Virus record (IMG/VR): IMGVR_UViG_3300037418_002116
Origin: a virus
Taxonomy: Duplodnaviria > Caudoviricetes
DNA: 64,000 nt
Strand: one strand, 5' to 3'
The position numbers and the translations under genes are program-made. The stretch's first letter is position 1; each line of letters begins with the position of its first letter. Below the pieces are notes generated by a model. The model was not told where the DNA came from, did no database searches, and saw only the letters and a list, made by a program, of their open reading frames with translations. Below, piece by piece: positions 3,101 to 39,876 of the stretch.

Positions 3101-6100
3101 TCATCTCTTTATGAATTTATTCAAGTATTTATCATATGAAAAATTATTGTCATCGTTCGTGGTATTTCCTATAACACCAAGTGTTGTATTAGAATTTTTC
3201 GTATATCCGGGCACTTTGATACCTTTTGTAAATGTTCGCAAGTAATCATCGTAACTAAGTCTGTTACTCTGGACATATCTCGCAATAGCGATCACTGTAT
3301 CATTTTGTTCGATGCAAACTAGAACGCCTTCAAGTTCGGCATGTAGTCCGAATGCATCTACAAGATCGTTCTCTTCTGCTATATTTGCAAAAGCTTGAAT
3401 TCTTAGCGAGGCTGTATCTTCATCGTTATCATCATCTTCAACGATAGAAGCCGAACCACTAATGCTTAGTGTAGAAGTTCCGTCGATATTGTCATTATCT
3501 TCTACAAGATCGCCAAAAGCCCGAATAGAAATTGCGGTTGATGAAGATACGTTATCATCATTTTCAATTGCTGAAAGCGCCGCTTGAATTATCAGACGAG
3601 TAGCGGATACGAGTCCGTCATCCGCTTCGCCAATAGAAGCACTACCATGTACAGCGATGGCCGATGCAGACGATTCCGTGTCTGAACCTTCGGTGATCGA
3701 GGCCGAAGCCTTAATTGCGATAGCGCCAGTCGCAGAAACAGTATCATTGGCTTCTGCAATCGAGGCAGAAGTTTTAATCGAAATAACACTACTTGCCGAT
3801 ACTGTGTCACCAGATTCTTGAAGGTTGCTGGTGCCTTTGATAAGCAGTGTTGCGGGTGACGATACGGCATCATCAGCTTCTACAATACCCGCTACATCTT
3901 TGATAAGCAGTGTTGCGGTTGACGATACGGTATCGTCACCTTCCGTGACATTCAATATGCCTAGTACTATACCAGCCGCCGCAGCCAATGTGTCATCGGC
4001 TTCTGTAATCGATGCCGTGGCTTTAAGCGGCAATGTAGCAACAGAAGTGAACGTGTCATTGGCTTCTGTAATATTCGCAGTTGCTACCTGTGGCGGCACA
4101 AAGCCTACAGCCGAAACCGTGTCATTGGCTTCTGTAATCGAGGCAGAAGCTTTCAGAGTGATTGTCGAAGCAGAAGAAACCGTATCGTTTGCTTCTGTAA
4201 TATTTACAGTTGCAACCTGTGGCGGAACAAAACCTACAGCGGAAACCGTGTCATCCGCTTCGCTCAATGCAGCTACGGCATGAATTGGTGATGCGCCTGT
4301 AGAAGAAACAGAATCGTTTGCTTCTGTGGATGCTACAGCACCAGCAATCGCAACTTTAGTTGCAGAACCTAGACTATCGTCCGCTTCTGTTACGGATGAA
4401 GTAGCTTTGATAGGCAAAGCTGCTGTAGAAGAAACCGTATCGTTTGCTTCTGTTATAGCAGCATCCGCCGAACGACCACTAGTCAATACAGATGTTGCAC
4501 TTAGCGTATCACTATCTTCTGTGATAGAAGCATTGGCTTTGATTGCAATTGTAGCAGTAGATGAAGAAGTGTCGTTTGCTTCTGTTATGACAGGTGTAGA
4601 ACTGTCATAAGCAACAATGTTGTAGTCATTGTAGTCAAGAGCGGTAACAAACTTGCCGTCCGCAGAACAACTAACTTCCCAATACTGTCCGTTGTATGTA
4701 TTTGGTGGCGTTAGAGCAGTGAATGTTGTAAAGTGGTCTGTAGACTGATATACTGCTGCAAACGTACCATCACCACCTGACAAATACTGGATACTGCCAT
4801 CATCTGACAACGATAGGTAATGAAGTTCAGATGGGCTGGTTAACGTCTTTGACGTCCATGTCGTACCACCATTTGTCGAATAAAGGTAGGTATCGGCTAC
4901 TGGTGTTGTTGCTGAACGTGCTGTAACTGCAATTGTTTGACCATCGACAGAGCAATCGATGTCTTTGTACGCTGAATTTCCGTTAGGACCGGGTGAAGGA
5001 ATCGTTGTTACTTGAGTCCAACTGACACCAGAATTCGTGCTTTTCCATAGTCCTGTCAAAGTTAGGCCATAGATTACCGAGCCATCGCTTGAAAGTGCAA
5101 AATCAACCCATGTTCTAACACCAGCCGCAGTTAGTGACGCCCATGTTGAGCCCTGATTGTATGAGATTACAGGATGTGAACCAGTCGTTCCATTACGTTC
5201 ACCAGCAATGATGACAGAGCCATCATTCGACATTCCTACAGCTTGCCAGTTGCCTGTCAATTCTGCGAAAGTCGATGCGCCTGTGGCAGACCACGTTACG
5301 CCTCTATTGGTTGATTTATAAATGTCCCCGAAAGACAGCGGTGCAATTAGAATGCTACCATCGTAGTTGCTACCGAATAGGTAGGACTGTCCTGATAGAT
5401 TAGTCTGTTGAGTCCATGAAACACCCTTATCAGAAGATGTCCAAGGGAAATCAAACGCACCAGCGATGATCAGTGAACCGTCTGGCACAACATAAGCGCT
5501 GCCAGTCCAATTGAAACTGTTATCGCCGGAATTGGTTACAAAGAAGCCTTTTGGCTTGTTAGCAACGATAGAGATTGTAGCAGTAGAGCTTAGCGTATCG
5601 TTTGCCTCAGATACGCTTTCATTTGCCTTAATTGAAATCGTTGCAGTTGATGACAGTGTATCGTCTGCATCTGATGTGACACCATTTGCTTTAATCGGAA
5701 TCGTTGCTGTAGATGAAACAGTGTCATTGGCTTCTGTGATAGACGCCGCTGCCTTTATGGCCAGTGTCGATGGAGAGACAACAGTGTCACCGGCTTCTGT
5801 GATCGATGCAGAAGCTTTTAGAGCAATTGTGGATGTCGAAGCAACGGTATCATTGGCTTCCGTAATCGAGGCTGTACCTTTGATCGAAATTGTGGAAGTC
5901 GAAGCAACAGTGTCACCGGCTTCTGATATCGCACCAGAAGCCGTAATAGAAATTGTGGAAGCCGACGATACAGTATCGTTCGCTTCGGTGATAGAGGCAG
6001 TTCCGGCAATCGGCGTTACTTGGATAACTGCCGTCACAGTGTCATTTGCTTCTGTTATAGAAGCATTAGCCTTGATCGCAATCGTAGCAGTAGATGAAGT

Positions 6101-8353
6101 GGCGTCGTCGGCTTCTACAATGAATTGACCGGAATTTCCAACCGAGAAATACAGATCACTTGGAGTTCCAGTATAAGAAGTACCGCCAGTATAGATGCTC
6201 GCTGAACCATTAGGATAAGTGCCATTAAATTGACCGGAAGCGAAATAATAGTTTACTGTGTCAGTTGCACCACTTCTGCTAACCAACAGCATATACGTTG
6301 TACCTGCGTTGGCGGTAATCGGAGAAGGAAAGGTAAACGTGGTGTTGGTAGCAGTAATTGTTAATGTGGAGCCAGCAACAGTCGATGACGTCGCTAATAC
6401 GGTCGCACCAGTAGCATCACGCAACTCAACGTAGAGGTTGTCTGTAGGACTACCTTGCTTGGCCAATCTAACAACACAGCTATCAACAACTAATTGTTTA
6501 GATGGTGTGAAAGTCTGCGCTGCACCAATATTGCTAGCATTATAACCAACAAGCAATGTAGTATCGATCGTTGTTGGAAAATTGTATTCGCCGCTTGAAG
6601 ACGATGCTGTATTCGGGTTGCTATTGTGGCTTGCTGATGATAGTGTGTCATCAGCTTCCGTAGGAGTTGAAGTAGCTTTAATCGCAATTGTTGTTGCTGA
6701 TGCAACTGTATCACTGTCTTCTGTAATAGAAGAAGTGCCAGAAATACCAAGTGTTCGAATCGTATATTCATTGTATTTCAATGTTCCATTGTCATTCATA
6801 ATGTATGGAAATACGATTGAATTGCCAGATTGATAAACGGCTCTTGCGTCGTGAGAGATAATCGAAACACTGGTTGTTCCGGTGTAGTCGAGTGTACCAG
6901 AACCCCAAGTTGCGCCGTTATCTGTAGAAGTCTTTACAGAAAGTGTTGTCGATCCAAGACCATAGTATGCATACACATTTCCGCTATCGTTGAATAGTCT
7001 GATAGAACCGCTGTTAGTACCGCCAGTTGATGTTCCGGTAACTGTTGGCGTCAGTGCAGAGTCAAAACGCATACCTTGTGGGGTAATTACCGTCTGGTTT
7101 ACCGATGTACCATGAGCAAATACTATTCTCTGGTTTGTACTTAGGTATGATGTCGATGTACAGACAGGCCCCGGAGTAGAATATAGGAAAGTAGTTGCCG
7201 TTGATTGTGTTTGTAGGACGTTTGCACTAGACAACGCTCTTTGTGCTGCCGTTCCCGACGCCGCAGAGAAAATAAAATGAATAATGTCACTGGTGCCCAG
7301 AATAGCATCAAATACAATACCATCGAATGCGCCACCAGCATCAACCGCCGTGTTGGTCGTCCAAACGCCACCCGTCGAACGACGTGAGTACACGGTTCTT
7401 GAGTAAGAGTTGCTCATGCTGACAACACGAGCGCCTTGGTGCAAGACTACGACTGAACCATCGGAACGAACGATGATCGAATTGGTGTATGCGTTGATTA
7501 GTGCGTTAGTTTGTGTATTCAGCGCAGACGTAATTGTTTCGACAGTACCGAATGTATCTGACGATATATCGAAAGTAAGATATTTGAAGTTTACAGATGT
7601 TGTCGCACCATCTGTTATACACAAGTGGATGATGTTACCTACTTGGAATCCAGAAATCCACTGAATTCCGGTAGTGAAGCCAGTTTTTGTAGTGACACTT
7701 GACCAAGAGGAAGTTGGTGCTGTTGATTTATATGCCTGCAATGTTGTTGCAGTCGTACCATCGACTGCAAAGAAATAGAATGCAGAAGAACCGGCAGTAC
7801 TTATCTTGAATAGCGCATCCGTGGACGTTCCCTGACTGTTCCCCACACCACTGGCGGTGCTGTAAGTGTGGAGTTCACCCCCTGTGTAAACATTATCTGT
7901 ACTCCAATCAAGGAGATAATAATTGCTTGCATCCGCCGCTCCTGAACGGGTGATCACGATGTAATAGATCGTTGAAGCCGATAATGCATATGGAGTACTG
8001 AATGTGAAATTCACCCATGCATAAGAGGTTGTTAGTGATGAACCGGCAACCGTTGCAGATGTAGCCAGTACTGTGGTTCCATCAGATGCAACAATGAGTG
8101 CAGTAAGATTATCGGTAGGGCTTCCGAATTTTTTTAGAGAGAAAGAGGCAGTTGCGATAGTAACAGCGCTGCCTGTAGTGATTTTTTGGGCCATGCCTAT
8201 ACGGCTAGTGGCATCACCCCAAAGGTTGTTAGCATCGCTCAAACCCGCTGAATTAAGGGATTGGGCATATGCAGTACCCGGTGGCGTTCCTAGAAACGGA
8301 CCTACAGGATTTACAGTTGAGCTTATACCAGTAATTGTTACAGGTAGAGTCAT
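3101..8353 (-). CDS. 1750-aa Ser/Thr-rich virion fibre-like protein with about 32 copies of a 21-aa repeat, two related beta-sandwich domains and BNR/Asp-box propeller segments
   Basis: Repeat consensus ASITEANDTVSSTATIAIKA; two AQxxT...GSPTDNL...TVLATS.TVAGS domains; S.D.G.TW Asp-boxes; lies in late neck cluster. Confidence 0.8.
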   Translation of the reverse strand: MTLPVTITGISSTVNPVGPFLGTPPGTAYAQSLNSAGLSDANNLWGDATSRIGMAQKITTGSAVTIATASFSLKKFGSPTDNLTALIVASDGTTVLATSATVAGSSLTTSYAWVNFTFSTPYALSASTIYYIVITRSGAADASNYYLLDWSTDNVYTGGELHTYSTASGVGNSQGTSTDALFKISTAGSSAFYFFAVDGTTATTLQAYKSTAPTSSWSSVTTKTGFTTGIQWISGFQVGNIIHLCITDGATTSVNFKYLTFDISSDTFGTVETITSALNTQTNALINAYTNSIIVRSDGSVVVLHQGARVVSMSNSYSRTVYSRRSTGGVWTTNTAVDAGGAFDGIVFDAILGTSDIIHFIFSAASGTAAQRALSSANVLQTQSTATTFLYSTPGPVCTSTSYLSTNQRIVFAHGTSVNQTVITPQGMRFDSALTPTVTGTSTGGTNSGSIRLFNDSGNVYAYYGLGSTTLSVKTSTDNGATWGSGTLDYTGTTSVSIISHDARAVYQSGNSIVFPYIMNDNGTLKYNEYTIRTLGISGTSSITEDSDTVASATTIAIKATSTPTEADDTLSSASHNSNPNTASSSSGEYNFPTTIDTTLLVGYNASNIGAAQTFTPSKQLVVDSCVVRLAKQGSPTDNLYVELRDATGATVLATSSTVAGSTLTITATNTTFTFPSPITANAGTTYMLLVSRSGATDTVNYYFASGQFNGTYPNGSASIYTGGTSYTGTPSDLYFSVGNSGQFIVEADDATSSTATIAIKANASITEANDTVTAVIQVTPIAGTASITEANDTVSSASTISITASGAISEAGDTVASTSTISIKGTASITEANDTVASTSTIALKASASITEAGDTVVSPSTLAIKAAASITEANDTVSSTATIPIKANGVTSDADDTLSSTATISIKANESVSEANDTLSSTATISIVANKPKGFFVTNSGDNSFNWTGSAYVVPDGSLIIAGAFDFPWTSSDKGVSWTQQTNLSGQSYLFGSNYDGSILIAPLSFGDIYKSTNRGVTWSATGASTFAELTGNWQAVGMSNDGSVIIAGERNGTTGSHPVISYNQGSTWASLTAAGVRTWVDFALSSDGSVIYGLTLTGLWKSTNSGVSWTQVTTIPSPGPNGNSAYKDIDCSVDGQTIAVTARSATTPVADTYLYSTNGGTTWTSKTLTSPSELHYLSLSDDGSIQYLSGGDGTFAAVYQSTDHFTTFTALTPPNTYNGQYWEVSCSADGKFVTALDYNDYNIVAYDSSTPVITEANDTSSSTATIAIKANASITEDSDTLSATSVLTSGRSADAAITEANDTVSSTAALPIKATSSVTEADDSLGSATKVAIAGAVASTEANDSVSSTGASPIHAVAALSEADDTVSAVGFVPPQVATVNITEANDTVSSASTITLKASASITEANDTVSAVGFVPPQVATANITEANDTFTSVATLPLKATASITEADDTLAAAAGIVLGILNVTEGDDTVSSTATLLIKDVAGIVEADDAVSSPATLLIKGTSNLQESGDTVSASSVISIKTSASIAEANDTVSATGAIAIKASASITEGSDTESSASAIAVHGSASIGEADDGLVSATRLIIQAALSAIENDDNVSSSTAISIRAFGDLVEDNDNIDGTSTLSISGSASIVEDDDNDEDTASLRIQAFANIAEENDLVDAFGLHAELEGVLVCIEQNDTVIAIARYVQSNRLSYDDYLRTFTKGIKVPGYTKNSNTTLGVIGNTTNDDNNFSYDKYLNKFIKR

Positions 8354-16309: not shown

Positions 16310-19300
16310 TTACATCTGTAGAGCTATCAAACGAAGGTCTGCCACTCTTGGAACCATGGCCGAATCCGTTGATGTTAGAACAATTTTTATCGAGAATTGT
16401 TTGAAACCAGAGAATGCAACGCCGTTCGAATTTGTATACTGAACAGCACCGAATAGACCGGTCATAATTGTATCAGAGAAACCAAATTCGTATTCAATCC
16501 AATCGTTCTGATTAGAGATAGAAGAGAATACAGTGTCAGATGTTTCCAATTGAATCCATGGATGACTTTCAAAGGTATCCGAGTCTTCGTTATTCGCAAT
16601 TTTTGCATAGACCAAAACGTCTGTATTTGGTGGACGGTAAGCAGTCAGATATACTTTCAAATCTTCTGCATCTTGACCTTCGGCCAAAGTGATAGTTTTG
16701 CAAATATATTTGTTCTGTGCTGCACCACCGGATGCCGCAGTTTCATTAGCCGTATTGGCATTTACAACGTTATGAACAAAGACGCCATGTGTTCTGTTCA
16801 AATCGATCACTGGCGACACATAAGGAGTGCTTGAAACAATCGAGGCTACAGCCTGATTAGAACGGGCGCTCGAAATCAAATCAACTTCCTTCGAACGACC
16901 AAGCAAATTCTTTTCAGAAGTAAAGAAATTATTGTCGTCTGGAATTACGGCAATTGAAGTCGAATCCAACGAATTGGTATTCGATGTTCCTTTCATGGTC
17001 CAGCCAAGAGACGTGTTCTGGAAAGTCAAATAGTTTGGTTCGAAGTCCACAACAGAGTACTTGATTGGAATTTTTGAACCAATTGTGCCACGATCACCAG
17101 AGGCAGAACCAATGATGATTTCGCCGTCTTCCCAATAACCAGTAGTGTCACGCAATTCGAGATGTGTCAAAGTTGCATTCACGGCACGATAGCTGTACAA
17201 TGAGCCGCTTGGGTATGTTACGGTTGCGAGAGTGGCTGTTCCTCTTGTGGTTCCTGTGTTTGATTTGATTGTCAGTGTTTCGCCGGATGTATAGTTCATA
17301 ATGGAGTTAGCTGACAAACGATAGGTTCCGCCAGAGATAGCAACAACTTGGCTGTTTGCGTGAGAAGTAGCGCCAACAAGACGGTTTCCAACTGCGATAG
17401 CGGCAGTGTTACCCGAGATTGTGATTCTGTTCTGACCTCTAACGATTTCACCGAACTTGTCGAAATCCGAAGTAACGGAAGACATGATGAATTTTTCGAA
17501 TGGCTTGTTACCAAAGTTGGCTGTACCAGTCGAGTTTGTGGTGAAGTCGGCACGATAGAAGGTGATCTTCAAATCGGCATTTGGAACTGGAGTCCAATCC
17601 ATATTGTTGTTTGTGTCGAACAACGTTCCTGTATATTTTCTGCTTACAACATTTTGACCAGTTGTAACGTCAGCTTCACCAAGCTTCGTAATCCAGACAT
17701 AAGTATCTGGATTTGTAGCAGTTGGGTGAATAACCAAAGCGTATTCGACGTTGTTGTACAAGAAAATTGGGCATTGGAAATAAATTCTTGTCGCCACTGT
17801 AGCGTCATCAGAAATTTGAATCTGACTTGGTTCTAGAGCAACAACAGAATATGGAACTGTATTTCTAGTAATGTTACCAGAATTATCCACTTCACGAACT
17901 TCAAACCATGCACCAAAGCTTGCATTTTTAGCTTCAAAATACAAATCGAAGCTTGTGAGGAATATACCTTCTTCTGTTGTAGGAGCATTGATAAAGAATG
18001 TATATGCCATACAGTCACTACGACTTCCACCATTGCCACCACGGCCTGTCGTGGTTGTTGACGTTGTGGGGTTTCTGATTGGGTTAATGATTGTAACATT
18101 ACCCTGTACGCCACCAGTCTGTGACACATCATCCTGTGAGGTTACAACCACATTGGTTGAAAGGATTGTGTCTTGCTTTTGTTGAATCAAGCCCGAGGCA
18201 GTGAAATATGCCAATGCATATGTCGTTGAATCATCTTCATTTGTTGGGCTATCCGACACACGAATTTTCTTCGTTCCGGTACGGAATCGCTTGCCAGAAT
18301 CAGGGAAACGAAGCAATGCGTAAGCTTTGCCGTCCGTGCCTGAAATCCAGTTTGCACCTTCGACACCAGTTGTAGAATAAGAACTGTTCGCTGGCGTCGT
18401 ATAGTCCGACATCAATTCATCATCGACATAAACCCATAGACGAGTGTTTGGCTTAATGTCACGTGCCGACAAGAGAACTGTCTGTGGACGAATGTATGGA
18501 ATGATCGAAACGTCAACAACCTTGTTTCCAAGATTCTCTGTTGTCGAAACAACGCTTGACGTTGTGGTCGTTCCCGAGCGTGTCTGCGAACCAAACTGTT
18601 CAATCTTTGTTGATTGACCGGTTCTGTTGCTTGTTGTCTGTGCAGCCGATAAAGCAGCGGCTTCCGTGGTATACGTACCAATCAGAGCGCCAGTGCTGTT
18701 GTTGTAAACTTTATAGCCTGTGATCGTTGTCTGCCAAGAATCCCATGTTGTTTGCAACGGAGGAACGCTTGTCGGTGTAGAATCACCAACCATCGTGTCG
18801 GGCAACTGAACAGTATCAACCCAAACGTCGGAGTCTGGAGTCAATGTCAACAAACCAATGAAGTTGTAGACGGCGTTTGTCGAGTTTCTTGTAGTTGTGG
18901 CGTATGGTTGTTCGATGAACGAAACTTCCGTGTATGGAAGAGTGATCAAGTTGTTCGATTGCTGAACACCAGAACCCGAAACATATTGATATCCAACCGA
19001 GTCCATATCGAATTGTGGACGGATACTCTGTTCCTTCGGATCGACAACGATTGAGTAATCAGGATTTGTGATCGCACCCTGTGAGTGATCACGGAATGTA
19101 TCAACGAAAATACCGTTTTTGAAGCGATCAAGGCCATTTTCGTCAAGGATAGACAAATCCGAAGCTTGCTTTTCAAGCAAATTCAACTGATTATAGTATT
19201 CCAGATTTGAAATACGTTCATCCAAAACGCCAATATCACGTTTTGTGTAGTTTCTGTATGCCGTTTTCTTGACTGTGCAAGCCAAATCTTGGCGATTTGA

Positions 19301-22150
19301 CTCGATGGCATAGGCAGGCGACAATGACGGGTATGGAGCGATTGTCAATGTGGCCAAAGCCATGGCATTTGGAGGCGTTGTTGGCGTGATCGGAACCGTG
19401 GCTGGCTGACCTTCCACAATAGAAATATTTCCAGCGGAATCCATAATCACCAAGTCCTTACGAGACATGTAATACGAATAATCGTATGTTACCTGTCCGC
19501 TTGGCGAAGGAAGATGTAGACCACCAGATGGTGCCGTGAAGCTTGTTGTCTTGGCCGGGTTGGCTGTAGCGCCCGCAACAGTCGTTGAACTGGTAGCAGT
19601 AGCCGCCTTCACAGGACGGAAATCAAGACTGTTGCGAAGATCATAACGGATACCGGTCGTTGGCGACACATAGACCGGAATCTGTTGTGTCAAGATCGAC
19701 GTATCCGAAATTGTAGCGTCGTTGATTGGGTATGAATCTACAGAGAAATAACCCAAGCCTTGTGTAAATGACGGTTCGAAGTGGTCGAGGCAAACCAATA
19801 GGTAATCACCCGAGGCGATAGGCGTAATCGGTGTGATCGTTGCATGATCATAAAGATTATCACGCTGGCCATTGTCGAAGATGAAATTGCTTGTTACGTC
19901 TGTACCGTCTGTAGAGGCAGTGAAAGCTGAACTTTTTGTTCGAACCGAACGAATTTGATACACGTCGGCAATACCCAAATTGAATGGGCCGGTTGTGCCG
20001 GAAGTAGCTCCATCGATCTTCACATAACGAGATGGACGAAGAAGCTTCGCCGTTTCACGTGCCGTTGTCTTTGTCAAGCGCAATGTCGCCGTAGCAGCGG
20101 TTGTGGCCGACAAGGTTTCTTTCATGTCGAATGATGCGCTTGTTGACGAATTGATCGTGATCGTTCTATCTGTTCCGGCGTCCGCACCCTTCCCTGTGAA
20201 ATCAACAATATCACCGATTTTGTATTGTTTAGTGAAAGTTTGTCCGGTAACTGTCGAAGGAATTGCCACAGTGGTTTTTAGAACTGTGTCAGAGACGATT
20301 TGATCGATAAAAAATGTGCCAGTAACAGTCGAAATCGAAATTTTATCACCAACATTCAAACGGGTGAAGAATGTCGATGTTCCATTGATGGTTGTATTTG
20401 AGTGAGTGGCAACTGTACCGCCCATGGTTTTGGTAGCAGCGGCGTCAAGAGAGATGATAATCTCTTCCTTATCGTCATCTACAAGGCCACCAACACCATA
20501 TGGGAAAATTTCATCCACGGCACCAGTGTTGATGGTGAATGTACCGCCAGAGGCGATAGAAATTGGGAATGATTTAGTGAAAGAGTAAGAGGTATCAACA
20601 TTACCTCCCGAATCTCTTATGGCCTTAACCGCACCAGCGCCAATATCATAGATTGAGGCGTCAAGGGATGTTTCCAACAAAGTGGCTGTATTCGAGATAG
20701 GATCAAGAACAACGTCCGCTCCAAGGTCCGCTGTTGAAGCGTTATTCAAATACAGGCTTCGAACAGAAGAGAAGGCACCATTCGACATCTTAACGTCGAA
20801 CAAATACACATTGTACTGTGCAGAAGGAGTTCCGGCTACACCGGAATGGAGTTCAATACCACGAACTTTCGCATTACCGATAGCCGCACCAGTCTGTGCC
20901 GCTGTAGAGAAACCAAGGTTCGTCAAACGTGCCTGTGCAGTGTTGTAAAGCCAGACAACCGAAGCACTGTTCATGTCCCATGAACCACAAAGTTCCTTCA
21001 CACGCAAATAATTGCCCATGCGAGTGCGTGAAACTTGGTTGTTGATGTTCTGTGCATCGATGGCCTTACGAACGTCTGTGTACTTTGTCACCAAAGTTTC
21101 GACATCGTAACCCTTGACATATGCCAAGCCGGGCTCAACACCAGCAACCAACAACGAAGTATTACCAGTTGTTGTGTATAGACCCTGATTTGTGCCATTA
21201 TCTTTGTGTTCACGAATACGAACGTTCAAACCAGTAGCATAGAAGTCACCACAATCAGCGTCGGTTCTTCTAGCTAATTCATCACGAATAGCTGAATATT
21301 GTGTTCTTTCATATGTGACTTCCAAAATGCCGTCACGAATACGGAAAAGTTCAACAAAATTTGGTGGACCAGAAACATCGTCAAGGTCGGTCTTGGCCAA
21401 CACAGCTTCAAGTTTGAATCGATCAGCACCCGGAGCGGCATAGTTATATGCGCCTAGAGCCGGATCATTTAGAGTTGGGTCGTCTTGTGCGGTGACAATC
21501 GATTCTAGAACATTGAAACCGATACGTGCAGATGGAGTTTGTGTGTATCGATCAAGAATGATCGTCTGTTTCACAAATGTAATGAAGTGATCTTTTGAGA
21601 ATACAATACCGTCATCAATGGTAAAAGTTGCGCCTTTACCTGTGGCAGAGGTTGCAAAAACAACTGCATTACCGGCACTAGACGTTAGAATTTCACCATC
21701 GGCAAAAACCTTGGTCACATTATCTGTGCCCGATGAAGTATAACGGACAAAAAGAGTTTTCTTGTCGGTTGCCGCCTGTGATCCATCCGCAACAGAGACA
21801 ACAAAAGCCTTGACACCAGTCGTCGCACCAGTCATGGTTGCGCCAACAAGGTTATTGACCACCACGGCACCGCCACCAGATGTGGTATCGTTGATTTTTA
21901 CGTAATCAATATCGGTATCGATGTGGAATTGACCACCAGCTACCAAAGAACCTTCTTTGAAAATATGCTCTGCAAATCTATCGATCTGCTTTTGAAGCAT
22001 AGTTTGAAGCTGAGTCAATTCACGGGCTTGAACAGCAACCGATGGCTTGAAAACAATACGATAAAAACCCTTGGTCTGATCGTAGTCATCGTACCAAGGG
22101 TTTACATTGAAGTCAGTATTATAGGAAAAACTGATAGTATTAGATGCCAT
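16310..22150 (-). CDS. 1946-aa DUF4815/VrlC-like baseplate-associated structural protein
   Basis: NVNPWYDDYD..KGFYR.VFKP...VQARELTQLQ..LQ.QI; APGADRFKL; DENGLDRFKNGIFVD.F. Confidence 0.9.
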   Translation of the reverse strand: MASNTISFSYNTDFNVNPWYDDYDQTKGFYRIVFKPSVAVQARELTQLQTMLQKQIDRFAEHIFKEGSLVAGGQFHIDTDIDYVKINDTTSGGGAVVVNNLVGATMTGATTGVKAFVVSVADGSQAATDKKTLFVRYTSSGTDNVTKVFADGEILTSSAGNAVVFATSATGKGATFTIDDGIVFSKDHFITFVKQTIILDRYTQTPSARIGFNVLESIVTAQDDPTLNDPALGAYNYAAPGADRFKLEAVLAKTDLDDVSGPPNFVELFRIRDGILEVTYERTQYSAIRDELARRTDADCGDFYATGLNVRIREHKDNGTNQGLYTTTGNTSLLVAGVEPGLAYVKGYDVETLVTKYTDVRKAIDAQNINNQVSRTRMGNYLRVKELCGSWDMNSASVVWLYNTAQARLTNLGFSTAAQTGAAIGNAKVRGIELHSGVAGTPSAQYNVYLFDVKMSNGAFSSVRSLYLNNASTADLGADVVLDPISNTATLLETSLDASIYDIGAGAVKAIRDSGGNVDTSYSFTKSFPISIASGGTFTINTGAVDEIFPYGVGGLVDDDKEEIIISLDAAATKTMGGTVATHSNTTINGTSTFFTRLNVGDKISISTVTGTFFIDQIVSDTVLKTTVAIPSTVTGQTFTKQYKIGDIVDFTGKGADAGTDRTITINSSTSASFDMKETLSATTAATATLRLTKTTARETAKLLRPSRYVKIDGATSGTTGPFNLGIADVYQIRSVRTKSSAFTASTDGTDVTSNFIFDNGQRDNLYDHATITPITPIASGDYLLVCLDHFEPSFTQGLGYFSVDSYPINDATISDTSILTQQIPVYVSPTTGIRYDLRNSLDFRPVKAATATSSTTVAGATANPAKTTSFTAPSGGLHLPSPSGQVTYDYSYYMSRKDLVIMDSAGNISIVEGQPATVPITPTTPPNAMALATLTIAPYPSLSPAYAIESNRQDLACTVKKTAYRNYTKRDIGVLDERISNLEYYNQLNLLEKQASDLSILDENGLDRFKNGIFVDTFRDHSQGAITNPDYSIVVDPKEQSIRPQFDMDSVGYQYVSGSGVQQSNNLITLPYTEVSFIEQPYATTTRNSTNAVYNFIGLLTLTPDSDVWVDTVQLPDTMVGDSTPTSVPPLQTTWDSWQTTITGYKVYNNSTGALIGTYTTEAAALSAAQTTSNRTGQSTKIEQFGSQTRSGTTTTSSVVSTTENLGNKVVDVSIIPYIRPQTVLLSARDIKPNTRLWVYVDDELMSDYTTPANSSYSTTGVEGANWISGTDGKAYALLRFPDSGKRFRTGTKKIRVSDSPTNEDDSTTYALAYFTASGLIQQKQDTILSTNVVVTSQDDVSQTGGVQGNVTIINPIRNPTTSTTTTGRGGNGGSRSDCMAYTFFINAPTTEEGIFLTSFDLYFEAKNASFGAWFEVREVDNSGNITRNTVPYSVVALEPSQIQISDDATVATRIYFQCPIFLYNNVEYALVIHPTATNPDTYVWITKLGEADVTTGQNVVSRKYTGTLFDTNNNMDWTPVPNADLKITFYRADFTTNSTGTANFGNKPFEKFIMSSVTSDFDKFGEIVRGQNRITISGNTAAIAVGNRLVGATSHANSQVVAISGGTYRLSANSIMNYTSGETLTIKSNTGTTRGTATLATVTYPSGSLYSYRAVNATLTHLELRDTTGYWEDGEIIIGSASGDRGTIGSKIPIKYSVVDFEPNYLTFQNTSLGWTMKGTSNTNSLDSTSIAVIPDDNNFFTSEKNLLGRSKEVDLISSARSNQAVASIVSSTPYVSPVIDLNRTHGVFVHNVVNANTANETAASGGAAQNKYICKTITLAEGQDAEDLKVYLTAYRPPNTDVLVYAKIANNEDSDTFESHPWIQLETSDTVFSSISNQNDWIEYEFGFSDTIMTGLFGAVQYTNSNGVAFSGFKQFSIKIVLTSTDSAMVPRVADLRLIALQM

Positions 22151-35564: not shown

Positions 35565-36062
35565 ATGACGAAGTTTCTATTACCAGAAGAGAACGTACAG
35601 AAACGCCGAAAGGCAAAGAAGAAGTCTAAACTTCCACAACCAAAGTACTTTGTGGCTGAAAATCCTCACAAGTACGTTGGTGATCCAAACTGTATTATCG
35701 CAAGATCGAATCTGGAAAGAAAATTTTACAAAATATTTGACACCAACCCGGCAGTACTGAAATGGGGTTGTGAAGAGATGTACATCAGGTACAAGTCATC
35801 TATTGACGGTACGGTACATCGTTATTTTCCGGATGCTGTTATAGAAATTAAGTCTCGATCAGGCAAAAAAATGCTCTATATGATCGAAATTAAGCCAAAA
35901 AAACAGTGTTTTCCCCCAAAAAATAGCAAATCCAAGCGGTTTTTGACGGAACAAGTCACTTATCAGACGAATCAAGACAAATGGAAAGCAGCCACGGAAT
36001 TCTGTAAATCCCATGGCATGATCTTTCACGTGCTAACAGAAGAGCATGTAGGCGGCTTCTAA
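35565..36062 (+). CDS. gp4: Head completion protein (PD-(D/E)XK fold)
   Basis: P.NP.KY.GD...I..RS..ER......D.NP....W..EE..I.Y....D...HRYFPD....IEIKP..Q. Confidence 0.9.
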   Translation: MTKFLLPEENVQKRRKAKKKSKLPQPKYFVAENPHKYVGDPNCIIARSNLERKFYKIFDTNPAVLKWGCEEMYIRYKSSIDGTVHRYFPDAVIEIKSRSGKKMLYMIEIKPKKQCFPPKNSKSKRFLTEQVTYQTNQDKWKAATEFCKSHGMIFHVLTEEHVGGF

Positions 36063-37296: not shown

Positions 37297-37732
37297 AAAC
37301 AATTAGCCCCGATTCCACATTCTTTCCGTCTATCTGGAACATATCATAAGGAAGCGGATGGTAATTGTCAATATATTTCTCAATATTTTGAGAATCTTTA
37401 CGGACCAGTGCGACAAGTTTGCCGCCCGGTCGTAAAAAGGTAATAGCGTGATCGACGTGGGGGATTGAATTTTTTGGCGGGCACATAAGCACCGCATCGA
37501 ATCGGCCAAGGAAATCCAGTGAACTATATGACATGGAAAGAAAGTCACGGTTGAACACAATGAAGCTATTCCGAAGCTTCATTGCCAGTTCCTTGTTCAG
37601 TTCAACACATGTGACTCGGGCACCAACGGCAACAGCGGCCATCGCAAGATTGCCGCCGCCAGCCGAGGGTTCCAACACTCTGTCATATTTCTGGATACCG
37701 GCAATCTTGACCATTTCATGGGCCAAGAACAT
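37262..37732 (-). CDS. Amino-methyltransferase-like protein with atypical CPP motif IV; start uncertain
   Basis: RVLEPSAGGG.L; CVELN; DFL; FDAVLMCPP; L.PGG.LVAL. Confidence 0.7.
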   Translation of the reverse strand: MFLAHEMVKIAGIQKYDRVLEPSAGGGNLAMAAVAVGARVTCVELNKELAMKLRNSFIVFNRDFLSMSYSSLDFLGRFDAVLMCPPKNSIPHVDHAITFLRPGGKLVALVRKDSQNIEKYIDNYHPLPYDMFQIDGKNVESGLIVYENPESNNRLT

Positions 37733-37755: not shown

Positions 37756-38003
37756 TGGTCCGGTGGGAAGGGTTCGAACCCCCGACACCAAGGCTTTCAT
37801 CCGTGTATTCTGCATCATTAAACATTGGAGCTACCATTGTCCTTTGATGCATACATTAAGGAATTACGGACGTTACTAAGTATCATATCGTCATGCAAAG
37901 TGTTGCAACACCTTACATTATTGTTTGACACCGTTGGCATCTTTAGGTTTCCCTTCGGTTCCTTCTTACGGTCCTTGTGCTCTACCAACTGAGCTACCAC
38001 CGG
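37756..38003 (-). tRNA. tRNA-Phe(GAA)-like gene interrupted by a 172-nt structured insert at the 5' side of the anticodon loop
   Basis: CCGGTGG TA GCTC AGTTGGTA GAGC A CAAGG [172 nt] ATGAAAG CCTTG GTGTC GGGGG TTCGAAC CCTTC CCACCGG A CCA; the non-insert parts sum to exactly 76 nt. Confidence 0.8.
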
Positions 38004-38012
38004 ATTACGCTT

Positions 38013-38040
38013 GATATAAGCGAGGATTATTGAATGTCAA
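38013..38040 (-). promoter_or_regulatory. Early promoter for the split tRNA
   Basis: TTGACA-N16-TATATC ending 9 nt before the tRNA 5' end. Confidence 0.75.
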
Positions 38041-38363: not shown

Positions 38364-38585
38364 ATGGCACGATTTAAAGATAAGAAGCTCCAAAAGGTGT
38401 TCGACCTTTACAGCAAGACCCCGCCAACGAAGCGTGGTGATGCTCTCTTGGCCAAATACTATTTCAACGGATTGGAATATCCAAATAAAGAAAACTTAAA
38501 GCCAGAACGAGGCACGTTTGCCTATGCGGCTTGGGCAGCGGGCCACGCACTGGCCAAACAAAGAGAAAAGACACAGAATGAATGA
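38364..38585 (+). CDS. Hypothetical protein
   Basis: SD plus promoter upstream; overlaps next gene. Confidence 0.65.
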   Translation: MARFKDKKLQKVFDLYSKTPPTKRGDALLAKYYFNGLEYPNKENLKPERGTFAYAAWAAGHALAKQREKTQNE

Positions 38586-39402
38586 CTTTCCAGCGATCAT
38601 TGATTTGAGCGGCTATACGGAGAAGATGCGGAAATCTTTTCTGGAAAAGACTTTCTTCCTCACTAAAATTCCAGCAACCGTCTACATGGATTTCGGATGT
38701 GCCGATGGCAGCATGATCGAATTCATGTTCAAGATGTTTCCGGAATATCGATATTTCGGGTATGACAACGATCCGAAAATGATCGAAATGGCAAAGAAGC
38801 TGAACATTCCGAACGCCTTCTTTTCCACGGACTATGACGCAATTGTCAAGGCCATGAACGACTACGATTCACAAAGAAAGACCGAAGGGAAACCACCGGC
38901 CATTCGAGCGGTCATATGTTCATCGCTCATTCATGAAATTTGTTCATATGCGCAACCGGGAAGCATGACGGTGACGCAATTTTGGAATCGAATTCGTTCG
39001 AATTACCATTACGTCTGCATCCGTGACATGGCGATGACGGAGGAAGCCGAAAAATATGATGTCAGCACTCACGACGTTTGGCAGATTGCCAAATTCTTCC
39101 TGAAAAATGAGGATGATGTCTATATCCTTGGAGATTTTCAGAAGAAATATGGGGAAATCACCAAACTAAAGCAGATGGTTCACTTTCTTCTGAAATATCG
39201 GTATAAGAACAATTGGGAGCGGGAGCTAAACGAGAACTACTTGCCGCTCACGGTCGAAAAAATTCTAGAAGAATTTAGTCACAAGGAAATTGTTTATCAG
39301 AACCATTACCTTCTACCATTTTTGAAAGATCGTGTAAAAACCGATTTCAACATCGATCTTAAAGAAGCGACTCACTTGCAATTGATCGTGAAGTTGCGCT
39401 AA
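38578..39402 (+). CDS. Class I SAM-dependent methyltransferase
   Basis: YMDFGCADG...YFGYDNDPKMIEMAK; SSLIHEI. Confidence 0.75.
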   Translation: MNDFPAIIDLSGYTEKMRKSFLEKTFFLTKIPATVYMDFGCADGSMIEFMFKMFPEYRYFGYDNDPKMIEMAKKLNIPNAFFSTDYDAIVKAMNDYDSQRKTEGKPPAIRAVICSSLIHEICSYAQPGSMTVTQFWNRIRSNYHYVCIRDMAMTEEAEKYDVSTHDVWQIAKFFLKNEDDVYILGDFQKKYGEITKLKQMVHFLLKYRYKNNWERELNENYLPLTVEKILEEFSHKEIVYQNHYLLPFLKDRVKTDFNIDLKEATHLQLIVKLR

Positions 39403-39667
39403 TCTCAATCGTGGTTGTTCTAGTGAGAAGCTGAACATCACCGACGATATGATATTTGGTTTGGCCATGCTTGATTTGAGCAATGGCCTTATCCACAGCC
39501 TTTGCATCATCGAACCATAGCTGGTCGATTGGGTCTTCAACCCATCGAACTTCATTAGCCCATGGGCCGTATTCAACAACGCCAAGCGGCAAATAGATAT
39601 TGCCGTCATTGTCTCGGGCTAACACCCGAGCCGAATGTTGCGTTTTGATCGTTCGGGAAACTAGCAT
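39359..39667 (-). CDS. Hypothetical protein
   Basis: Last gene of coupled - strand operon. Confidence 0.55.
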   Translation of the reverse strand: MLVSRTIKTQHSARVLARDNDGNIYLPLGVVEYGPWANEVRWVEDPIDQLWFDDAKAVDKAIAQIKHGQTKYHIVGDVQLLTRTTTIEISATSRSIASESLL

Positions 39668-39876
39668 CTGGCGAGGAAATCTCCCGGCTTTTGCACAGCT
39701 TTGTGAATTTCATTCAGCTTCGATTGCTGGCCTTCCGGATAAGTTTTGTCGATATCGTGAACAAACACCATGTCCAGATGCGCCTTGATACACGCCGTCT
39801 GTTCAGCATTCAAATCATTAGGTTTGCTCAATTCGAACATCCCCTGCAACCAATAACAAAATTCTACTGCTTTCAT
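39661..39876 (-). CDS. Hypothetical protein
   Basis: F.YWLQG.FE...LN..Q...IK.HL..VF pattern recalled from phage proteins; ATGA overlap. Confidence 0.65.
   Translation of the reverse strand: MKAVEFCYWLQGMFELSKPNDLNAEQTACIKAHLDMVFVHDIDKTYPEGQQSKLNEIHKAVQKPGDFLARC

Follow-up and report, generated by a model that had tools for sequence, protein, structure and literature searches.

The stretch of DNA analyzed here (the window, 64,000 nucleotides of IMG/VR virus record IMGVR_UViG_3300037418_002116) is a 64-kb fragment of a T4-like myovirus. On its minus strand, it holds a tRNA-Phe(GAA) gene that is split by a structured insert and is followed by genes for a small methyltransferase and for a cupin-fold metalloprotein. 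The tRNA gene runs from 38003 to 37756 and is complete, down to an encoded CCA, and the 172-nt insert (37972-37801) sits between tRNA nucleotides 31 and 32.

The interrupted tRNA-Phe gene and its insert

ARAGORN in intron mode calls tRNA-Phe c[37756,38003] with anticodon GAA and a 172-nt intron after position 31, and the same search on 20 shuffles of the window gave no match. Once the insert is removed in silico, ARAGORN in default mode calls an ordinary 76-nt tRNA-Phe; the interrupted gene itself is missed by this default mode and by Rfam at gathering thresholds. An earlier note on this DNA had described the coordinates, the cloverleaf and the 76-nt tRNA that is left upon removal of the insert, and the searches agree on each of these, with the strand now set as minus. 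The acceptor stem reads CCGGUGG/CCACCGG, the D arm GCUC/GAGC and the anticodon stem CAAGG/CCUUG, the last closing a loop of sequence AUGAAAG; the T arm (GGGGG/CCUUC) includes two G-U pairs, and the gene ends with a discriminator A and CCA. Within the 3' exon, the anticodon GAA occupies 37798-37796 and the CCA 37758-37756.

A promoter-like element ends 9 nt ahead of the tRNA 5' end (Table 1). The promoter that had been proposed for this gene reads TTGACA, a 16-nt spacer and TATATC, an arrangement left unlisted by the consensus scanner because the -10 box ends in C. The TTGACAT (-35) box is kept in the related locus L001, and inspection by eye showed similar boxes ahead of the copies in L012, Caulobacter phage CcrPW, Brevundimonas phage Bajun and Rhizobium phage RHph_Y1_11.

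The insert folds at -49 kcal/mol (z = -4.3), a value that none of 200 shuffles equaled. The consensus fold of subfamily A, composed of the window and of its relatives L005 and L012, contains 9 compensatory pairs, and compensatory changes fall in helix a, in helix d and in the hairpin at 37918-37893 of the insert 5' domain. The elements that had been drawn from the window sequence, namely, the closing helix CCGU/ACGG (here H0), the GAAA-tetraloop hairpin and the AAGGUGU-UGCA-ACACUUU and long UGCAUCA...UGAUGCA hairpins, are all part of this three-member consensus. Two further proposals of the earlier note do not survive the comparison. A pseudoknot formed from extra CCGU/ACGG copies is rejected because the internal ACGG is not conserved (AAGG in L005 and AGGG in L012), and the short open reading frame (ORF) ANGVKQ* reads ANGVKQ*, AKGIKQ* and AKGV* in three close relatives and lies inside base-paired helices; the motif was not noticed by eye in the inserts of other subfamilies, in which no search for it was made. 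A P7-like pairing GACG/CGUC was ruled out as well, since covariation favors GAUG/CRUC.

Two repeats were observed within the gene. The apical loop of the insert 3' hairpin (37828-37835, minus strand) repeats the 8-mer GGUAGCUC of the tRNA D arm (37990-37997, minus strand), and an internal CCGUAAU (37869-37863) echoes the CCGUAAG with which the insert starts. Together, they could be the trace of an origin of the insert by partial duplication.

Table 1. Positions of the interrupted tRNA-Phe gene, of the parts of its insert and of the linked genes in the window
Feature	Position	Strand	Remarks
Promoter-like element	38013..38040	-	TTGACA at 38040-38035, 16-nt spacer, TATATC at 38018-38013
tRNA-Phe 5' exon, nt 1-31	37973..38003	-	Acceptor 5' strand, D arm, CAAGG; ARAGORN intron mode and sequence
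Structured intron-like insert, 172 nt	37801..37972	-	Between tRNA nt 31 and 32; ARAGORN intron mode, fold z score, consensus structure
H0 closing helix, 5' strand CCGU	37968..37971	-	Pairs with 37804-37801; covariation in 14 members
Insert 5' domain	37858..37964	-	Helix a (AAGGAA/UUCCUU), GAAA-tetraloop hairpin 37954-37945, helices c and d, hairpin 37918-37893
GACGAUA strand	37886..37892	-	Commonest insert motif (RACGRUAR); opposite AACAAUA over an internal loop
3' hairpin domain	37805..37854	-	Apical UGGUAGCUCCA loop, bulged GAA just ahead of H0; common to insert subfamilies
H0 closing helix, 3' strand ACGG	37801..37804	-	Abuts A32 of the anticodon loop directly
tRNA-Phe 3' exon, nt 32-76	37756..37800	-	AUGAAAG, CCUUG, variable loop GUGUC, T arm, acceptor 3' strand, A73
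Small SAM-dependent methyltransferase, 156 aa	37262..37732	-	Begins 23 nt past the tRNA
Cupin-fold metalloprotein, 156 aa	36545..37015	-	HxW...DDDxR..HDHP...H motifs, ECPYF and GHHPC; PHROG 4786

Distribution and covariation of the interrupted genes

Relatives were recovered by using the downstream methyltransferase as a handle, and further ones were recovered through homologs of the methyltransferase or of the cupin. Interrupted tRNA-Phe(GAA) genes occur at the same place in the loci L001, L005, L006, L007/L008, L009/L010, L011 and L012, with inserts of 114 to 173 nt after position 31. We collected 22 interrupted copies altogether, 20 of which are Phe(GAA) types split at 31/32 by inserts of 114 to 200 nt. 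The carriers are T4-like myoviruses, siphoviruses of the Dolichocephalovirinae and the Rhizobium phage RHph_Y1_11, and the identity of the linked methyltransferases among them ranges from about 30% to 88%. Upon splicing in silico, every homolog tested (18 of 18, the window and 17 others) became a normal tRNA-Phe(GAA) of 75 to 77 nt by ARAGORN in default mode. The D arm and the variable loop of the interrupted tRNAs resemble those of bacterial tRNA-Phe.

Covariation is evident in both helices that meet at the junctions. The anticodon stem appears as CAAGG/CCUUG, CUAAG/CUUAG, GUAGG/CCUAU, ACAAG/CUUGU and UUAGG/CCUGA, and H0 appears as CCGU/ACGG, CUGG/CCAG, CCGG/CCGG, CCUG/CGGG, CCGC/GCGG and AGAA/UUCU. 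Across 14 parsed members, H0 is paired in 56 of 56 cells, a number that drops to at most 26 when the partner strand is slid, and the anticodon stem and H0 are fully canonical in each of the 14. The insert begins with 0 to 2 linker nucleotides followed by the 4-bp H0 (5 linker nucleotides in the GD1 tRNA-Val described below). The 5' exon ends with G31 paired to C39 in 13 of the 14 members and with a U31-A39 pair in L056; the insert ends with G, which belongs to the closing C-G pair of H0, in 13 of the 14 members and with U in L056.

The interior of the insert also carries compensatory changes, with 12 such pairs in subfamily B (L001, L006, L009 and L011). In subfamilies A and B, H0 opens into a three-way junction, whose other parts are a 5' domain that varies, the 3' hairpin and, just before H0, the purine strand N-GAA-W-R-Y. 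A covariance model built on subfamily B scores 32.4 bits against the whole subfamily C insert (L007) and, with filters off, 17.2 bits (E about 5e-5) against the 3' 70 nt of the window insert (37870-37801). These alignments suggest that the T4-like lineage has a common core, composed of the junction and the GAA strand with the 3' hairpin, next to a 5' domain free to vary, and that the interior of the insert is under structural selection. The best motif candidate of a k-mer survey, RACGRUAR, is found as GACGAUAG within 1 mismatch in 8 of 16 lineages.

Position 33, next to the anticodon, flips between near-identical relatives: it is U in the window (37799), A in L005 and C in L012; U in L009 and A in L006; U in L135 and C in L136. 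The same observation takes in L048 and L045. Such flips could be a signature of selection by host nucleases.

Linked enzymes, cultured carriers and variant loci

Comparison of the loci indicates a conserved three-part module consisting, in order, of one or more interrupted tRNAs, a small RNA-type S-adenosylmethionine (SAM) methyltransferase and a cupin metalloprotein. Homologs of the methyltransferase follow the interrupted tRNA in every lineage. The AlphaFold2 model of the window protein (predicted local distance difference test score, pLDDT, 90) has as its nearest folds mostly tRNA and rRNA base methyltransferases, i.e., TrmN, Trm11, RsmD-like proteins, KsgA and TrmI, along with M.TaqI. An ORF at 37852-37262 (minus strand) extends without a stop codon from within the insert, across the tRNA 3' exon, to the methyltransferase, as is also the case in L001; we consider the long ORF through the tRNA an artefact and place the true methyltransferase start at the ATG at 37732. 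In RHph_Y1_11 (L048, 1237-1956), the deposited coding sequence EVC30_106 is likewise extended across the interrupted RNA.

Cupin homologs with 38 to 88% identity were found in all loci that have the RNA by BLAST of the surrounding ORFs. They belong to a large, unnamed family, whose nearest ESM Atlas clusters are mostly viral. The AlphaFold2 model of the window cupin (pLDDT 83) gives generic Foldseek matches to metal cupins. As to function, Pfam and NCBIfam returned nothing and a PDB sequence search returned a weak cupin match only, and the ESM Atlas label "cysteine dioxygenase family" is a sub-threshold lead only. A bacterial genome scan with the cupin yielded just two contigs of metagenome-assembled genomes. 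In IMG/VR, all cupins with at least 52% identity have the methyltransferase directly upstream and an odd tRNA before that (10 loci, corresponding to 9 contigs because L134 and L137 read the same CcrPW contig); 8 of the 9 contigs carry a large insert, and L138 has an 8-nt loop instead. The same arrangement is found with the L149 cupin (39% identity). The complete related phage G002 has neither enzyme and an ordinary tRNA-Phe.

RNA ligase genes are present in all three complete module genomes, with Rnl2-type ligases in G004 and G005 and RtcB in G005 and G007, and G006 (65% complete) has two Rnl2-type ligases. In G004, the distance between a cREC gene and the interrupted tRNA is no more than about 130 nt. 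The cREC domain is predicted to be a 2',3'-cyclic phosphoesterase and has been linked to RNA ligases (PMC7824862). A gene with a cREC_REC domain is found immediately upstream of the interrupted tRNA in L005 (2252-2587) and in L007 (2257-2568), and is not present there in the window.

Through their methyltransferase and cupin homologs, GenBank phages were found to have gaps of about 700 nt that lack annotation and contain one or two interrupted tRNA-Phe genes. Caulobacter phage CcrColossus has two tandem interrupted copies upstream of gp358 and gp359, and the module is present, also unannotated, in Caulobacter phage CcrPW, Brevundimonas phage Bajun and Rhizobium phage RHph_Y1_11. In the paper on the phiCbK and Colossus genomes, tRNAs are the sole RNA elements reported, and gp358 is described as a possible rRNA methyltransferase (PMC3556154). 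Our literature search found no description of such interrupted tRNAs. A match of the CcrPW sequence to YrlA (Y RNA-like) reached 24 bits versus a gathering threshold of 69. It runs from the 3' half of one tRNA into the 5' half of its neighbor and was discarded as an artefact of their tandem arrangement.

The more distant cupins lack the methyltransferase and are still found among tRNA genes, which are often abnormal. Uninterrupted tRNAs with anticodon loops of 8 to 9 nt occupy the same place relative to the cupin in L138 (1938-2014), L143 (about 2388-2463) and L002 (52-127), their loops reading UAGAUUAA, AGAUCACAU and GCAAUUAGC, respectively, with 9 nt in L143; such tRNAs occur with or without the methyltransferase. 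Beside cupin homologs in L002 (216-416) and L145 (1827-2009), tRNA-Ile(GAU)-like genes have inserts of 125 and 106 nt, respectively, after A38 (38/39). ARAGORN wrongly labels the interrupted tRNA-Ile of L002 as Arg, and a tRNA with the amber-reading anticodon CUA directly follows the interrupted gene of L145 (2017-2089), which may indicate stop-codon recoding in that phage. L175 has two tRNA-like genes of about 130 nt, and its insert position is in the variable region. Finally, the Paraglaciecola Antarctic GD virus 1 (GD1; L178, MW805361) has an unannotated tRNA-Val(GAC) at 2168-2294 with a 50-nt insert at 31/32 and the same closing-helix geometry, flanked by the RNA ligase gp191 and the phosphatase gp192 and by the cupin gp194. 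A hammerhead reading of CUGACGA in the GD1 insert was abandoned, the remaining core being absent upon inspection.

The assignment of the window to a T4-like myovirus rests on a gp5-like baseplate hub, gp6, gp8, a gp48-like protein, a gp15 sheath stabilizer, a neck protein and a T4 baseplate protein. By gp6, its nearest cultured relative is Ochrobactrum phage vB_OspM_OC (43% identity), followed by Pelagibacter and Methylophilales phages. No INPHARED phage matched the tRNA locus or a 16-kb stretch of the window at the DNA level, and exact and gapped DNA patterns of the locus recovered the contig of L001 only from IMG/VR and the JGI metagenomes. On the opposite strand (35565-36062, plus) lies a gene for a TnsA-like PD-(D/E)xK endonuclease (PF08722, E = 8e-20), perhaps a homing nuclease; it recurs in L001, L005, L006 and L009 at about 2 kb downstream of the module and is not present in L007 or the other lineages. 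Another SAM methyltransferase gene, unrelated to that of the module (38518-39402, plus strand), diverges from the tRNA promoter region and has 68% identity to a gene of L003, a phage without the module. A weak tRNA-Ala(UGC) call at 39653-39739 (plus strand), obtained with ARAGORN at a lowered score threshold only and overlapped by small ORFs, is probably spurious. Two very large ORFs of the tail/baseplate region, at 3101-8353 and 16310-22150 (minus strand; 1750 and 1946 aa, respectively), presumably encode fibre or wedge-extension proteins.

Proposed excision of the insert, alternatives and known systems

We propose that the window carries a live phage tRNA-Phe(GAA) gene with a spliced intervening sequence that is not of group I and that represents an undescribed class, and we assign to this reading a rough probability of one half. 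Every tRNA feature is kept, both junction helices covary and ligases are present, which together argue for excision leading to a working tRNA-Phe. Among the options listed in the earlier note, a new intron type is the one best supported by the comparative data, and, with nothing alike in Rfam 15, there is a substantial chance that this tRNA intervening sequence belongs to a new class. More tentatively, we suggest a new class of tRNA introns in phages of bacteria, in which a compact RNA at the boundary of the anticodon stem and loop would be removed by a pathway so far not described from bacteria. The insert may contain a small, undescribed self-cleaving or self-splicing fold, with the products sealed by an RNA ligase of the phage or the host. 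Alternatively, the phage may have enzymes dedicated to the task, the linked cupin and methyltransferase, which would cut, mark or mature the tRNA. Since the interior appears structurally conserved, the insert RNA itself would matter, as a catalyst, as an enzyme platform or as a stable product.

Our working model is as follows. The gene would be transcribed from its own promoter, probably together with both enzyme genes. The tRNA body would fold and H0 would stack on the anticodon stem, leaving the seven loop nucleotides as a bulge. Excision would then follow the ends of the two stacked helices precisely, with cuts after nucleotide 31 and after the last H0 pair, made either by the fold of the insert itself or by the cupin, and the exons, held together by the tRNA body after cutting, would be joined by an RNA ligase, which may be a phage Rnl2 or RtcB or a host RtcB. 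The product would be a phage tRNA-Phe that the linked methyltransferase and cupin modify or help to process, and its variable position 33 may aid escape from host anticodon nucleases.

Several observations weigh against excision by this route. The subfamily B covariance model misses the inserts of CcrPW, Bajun, RHph, L056, L135 and L141, and the k-mer survey of 16 lineages found no universal insert motif. No junction nucleotide is conserved at either end, which is unusual for a ribozyme; indeed, this feature and sizes of 50 to 200 nt speak against a classical ribozyme and in favor of cutting defined by structure. A single cutting geometry also fails to serve both 31/32 and the 38/39 position of L002 and L145. 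As for enzymes, no RNA ligase was recognized among the window ORFs tested or in G001 (85% complete), and no endonuclease was identified; cupins are not known as a nuclease fold, and the splicing endonuclease family PF01974 (EndA) gave no match at E up to 0.01 in phage records G001-G003, with archaeal controls detected. Finally, U is nearly invariant at position 33 of decoding tRNAs, and 9 of the 16 distinct copies have U there, 4 have A and 3 have C, with GAA (34-36) invariant. This variation is compatible both with a non-decoding RNA and with nuclease escape (cf. PMC10264068). It also lends some indirect support to a decoy resistant to anticodon nucleases, one of the options raised in the earlier note.

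A non-decoding RNA is the basis of the best-surviving alternative, in which the insert would never be removed and the gene would produce a stable tRNA-like chimera of about 250 nt. Its tRNA-Phe body would provide processing by RNase P and CCA maturation, stability and perhaps charging by phenylalanyl-tRNA synthetase (PheRS). The inserted domain would keep the RNA off the ribosome, and the RNA would serve as a substrate, scaffold or cofactor for the two enzymes or as a decoy for a host nuclease directed at tRNA-Phe. We consider this chimera less likely than excision but a serious rival. In its favor, position 33 varies while GAA, an identity element for PheRS, is invariant. The structural selection that seems to act on the insert interior, the tight linkage to two enzymes and the lack of conserved junction nucleotides point in the same direction, as do the uninterrupted tRNAs with 8- to 9-nt loops that take the same place by the cupin in L138, L143 and L002 and the varying insert positions (31/32, 38/39 and the variable region in L175). 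However, a payload of 50 to 200 nt without a core common to all lineages would be odd for a functional domain, all features of a decoding tRNA are kept, among them the T and D arms, an anticodon stem of 5 bp and, with R37, a loop of exactly 7 nt, and a stoichiometric decoy would presumably be a costly strategy.

An unlikely alternative is a highly reduced, IC3-like group I intron, self-splicing with the anticodon stem in place of P1/P10. The location at the anticodon loop of a bacterial-type tRNA gene would fit, as would the G with which 13 of the 14 parsed inserts end, and exon pairing in the anticodon stem aids the Anabaena tRNA-Leu intron. Putative resemblances to IC3 introns are GGGAAACCUAAA and GGUGUCAAA in the window insert and CAGACUA in CcrPW copy 1. 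However, five permissive Rfam 15 scans (E up to 10; window, L010-L012, L002 and CcrPW) gave no group I match, and the 5' exon ends in G31 in a Watson-Crick pair with C39, not in a U.G wobble; the absence of a U at the 5' junction had already been pointed out from the window sequence along with the lack of group I motifs. Furthermore, no intron segment or guide sequence covaries with the exon end upon inspection, the terminal G is base paired in H0 and is replaced by U in L056, and the known group I cores are far larger than inserts of 114 nt, let alone the 50 nt of GD1. Over the insert, no Rfam 15 family reached E = 10 in the window or in the relatives scanned, including tmRNA and all self-cleaving ribozyme families (hammerhead, hairpin, twister, twister-sister, pistol, hatchet and HDV-like). 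The exclusion of a bulge-helix-bulge in the earlier note is upheld too: none can be drawn at either junction, since the intron strand that each of the two arrangements requires has no complement in the exon 2 loop or the exon 1 end.

Inactivation of the tRNA gene by an insertion, or a rescue RNA of the tmRNA kind that uses the ANGVKQ frame, would explain why default tRNA finders and Rfam miss the gene and why the insert contains a short ORF, but the comparative data refute this reading for practical purposes: the genes are conserved with compensatory changes across very distant phages, contrary to the dead tRNA without covariation that the earlier note had named as its counter-scenario, all 18 spliced forms tested are intact, the ARAGORN tmRNA mode finds 0 genes, the acceptor stem has no G.U at 3:70 (as had been noticed from the window) and the ORF is not conserved and falls in helices. 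The ARAGORN, Rfam and Infernal searches that had been proposed as checks thus gave no match to a group I or tmRNA model.

The insert has points in common with five known systems. Like the group I IC3 introns of cyanobacterial tRNA-Leu(UAA) and Azoarcus tRNA-Ile, it is structured, lies at the anticodon loop with exons paired in the anticodon stem and mostly ends in G. It differs from them in lacking a covariance model match, a U.G 5' site and a guide, in a 31/32 position that is not inside the loop, in its size of 50 to 200 nt across the family and in its paired terminal G. T4 species 1 and 2 (rnaC and rnaD) are stable tRNA-like RNAs of T4-type phages whose function is not known, rnaC having a T arm and an acceptor-like stem. 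We considered them as relatives and rejected them as not similar: unlike the RNAs described here, they lack a split cloverleaf, an anticodon arm and the enzyme partners, and their sequences show no similarity to the interrupted tRNAs.

The resemblance to archaeal and eukaryal tRNA introns, including those at noncanonical positions in Crenarchaeota, resides in sites that seem to be set by helices, in very variable lengths and sequences and in the plausibility of ligation by RtcB or Rnl enzymes. Unlike archaeal introns, the phage inserts have no bulge-helix-bulge, since both sites lie at one end of the closing helix in an asymmetric internal loop of 0-5 by 7 nt; their interior is conserved, and an EndA homolog was not found in three related phage records. 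The tRNA repair systems T4 Pnkp/Rnl1 and bacterial Pnkp/Hen1 mend host-inflicted cuts in ordinary tRNAs, and in Pnkp/Hen1 a methyltransferase marks the repaired junction. Our loci share with them the phage context, an RNA ligase, cREC or phosphatase gene near some members and a methyltransferase linked to a tRNA that would need sealing. In contrast to repair, it is the gene itself that is discontinuous, and, as far as tested, its linked methyltransferase is not a Hen1 homolog.

Phage tRNAs can evade anticodon nucleases through changes in the anticodon loop (PMC10264068), and escape tRNAs have been described for PARIS and for a retron (PMC11464382, PMC11555353). Like these, the interrupted tRNAs are phage encoded and have an unusual anticodon loop, with flips at position 33 that are reminiscent of an arms race; the escape tRNAs were described without an insert and without methyltransferase or cupin partners. 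For annotation, the immediate consequence is that default-mode tRNA finders miss these genes and that the methyltransferase coding sequence of RHph_Y1_11 is over-extended. The model can be tested immediately because the module is present in cultured phages of the model organism Caulobacter crescentus. To our knowledge, self-splicing group I introns are the sole tRNA introns known in bacteria and their phages. If the insert is spliced, the module would represent an overlooked route of tRNA splicing and the first non-group-I system in the bacterial world; if it is not, the module would define a new, tRNA-based kind of phage RNA with a methyltransferase and a cupin as its working partners. Either way, it is relevant to the means by which phages shield or adapt tRNAs of their own in the arms race with host anticodon nucleases.

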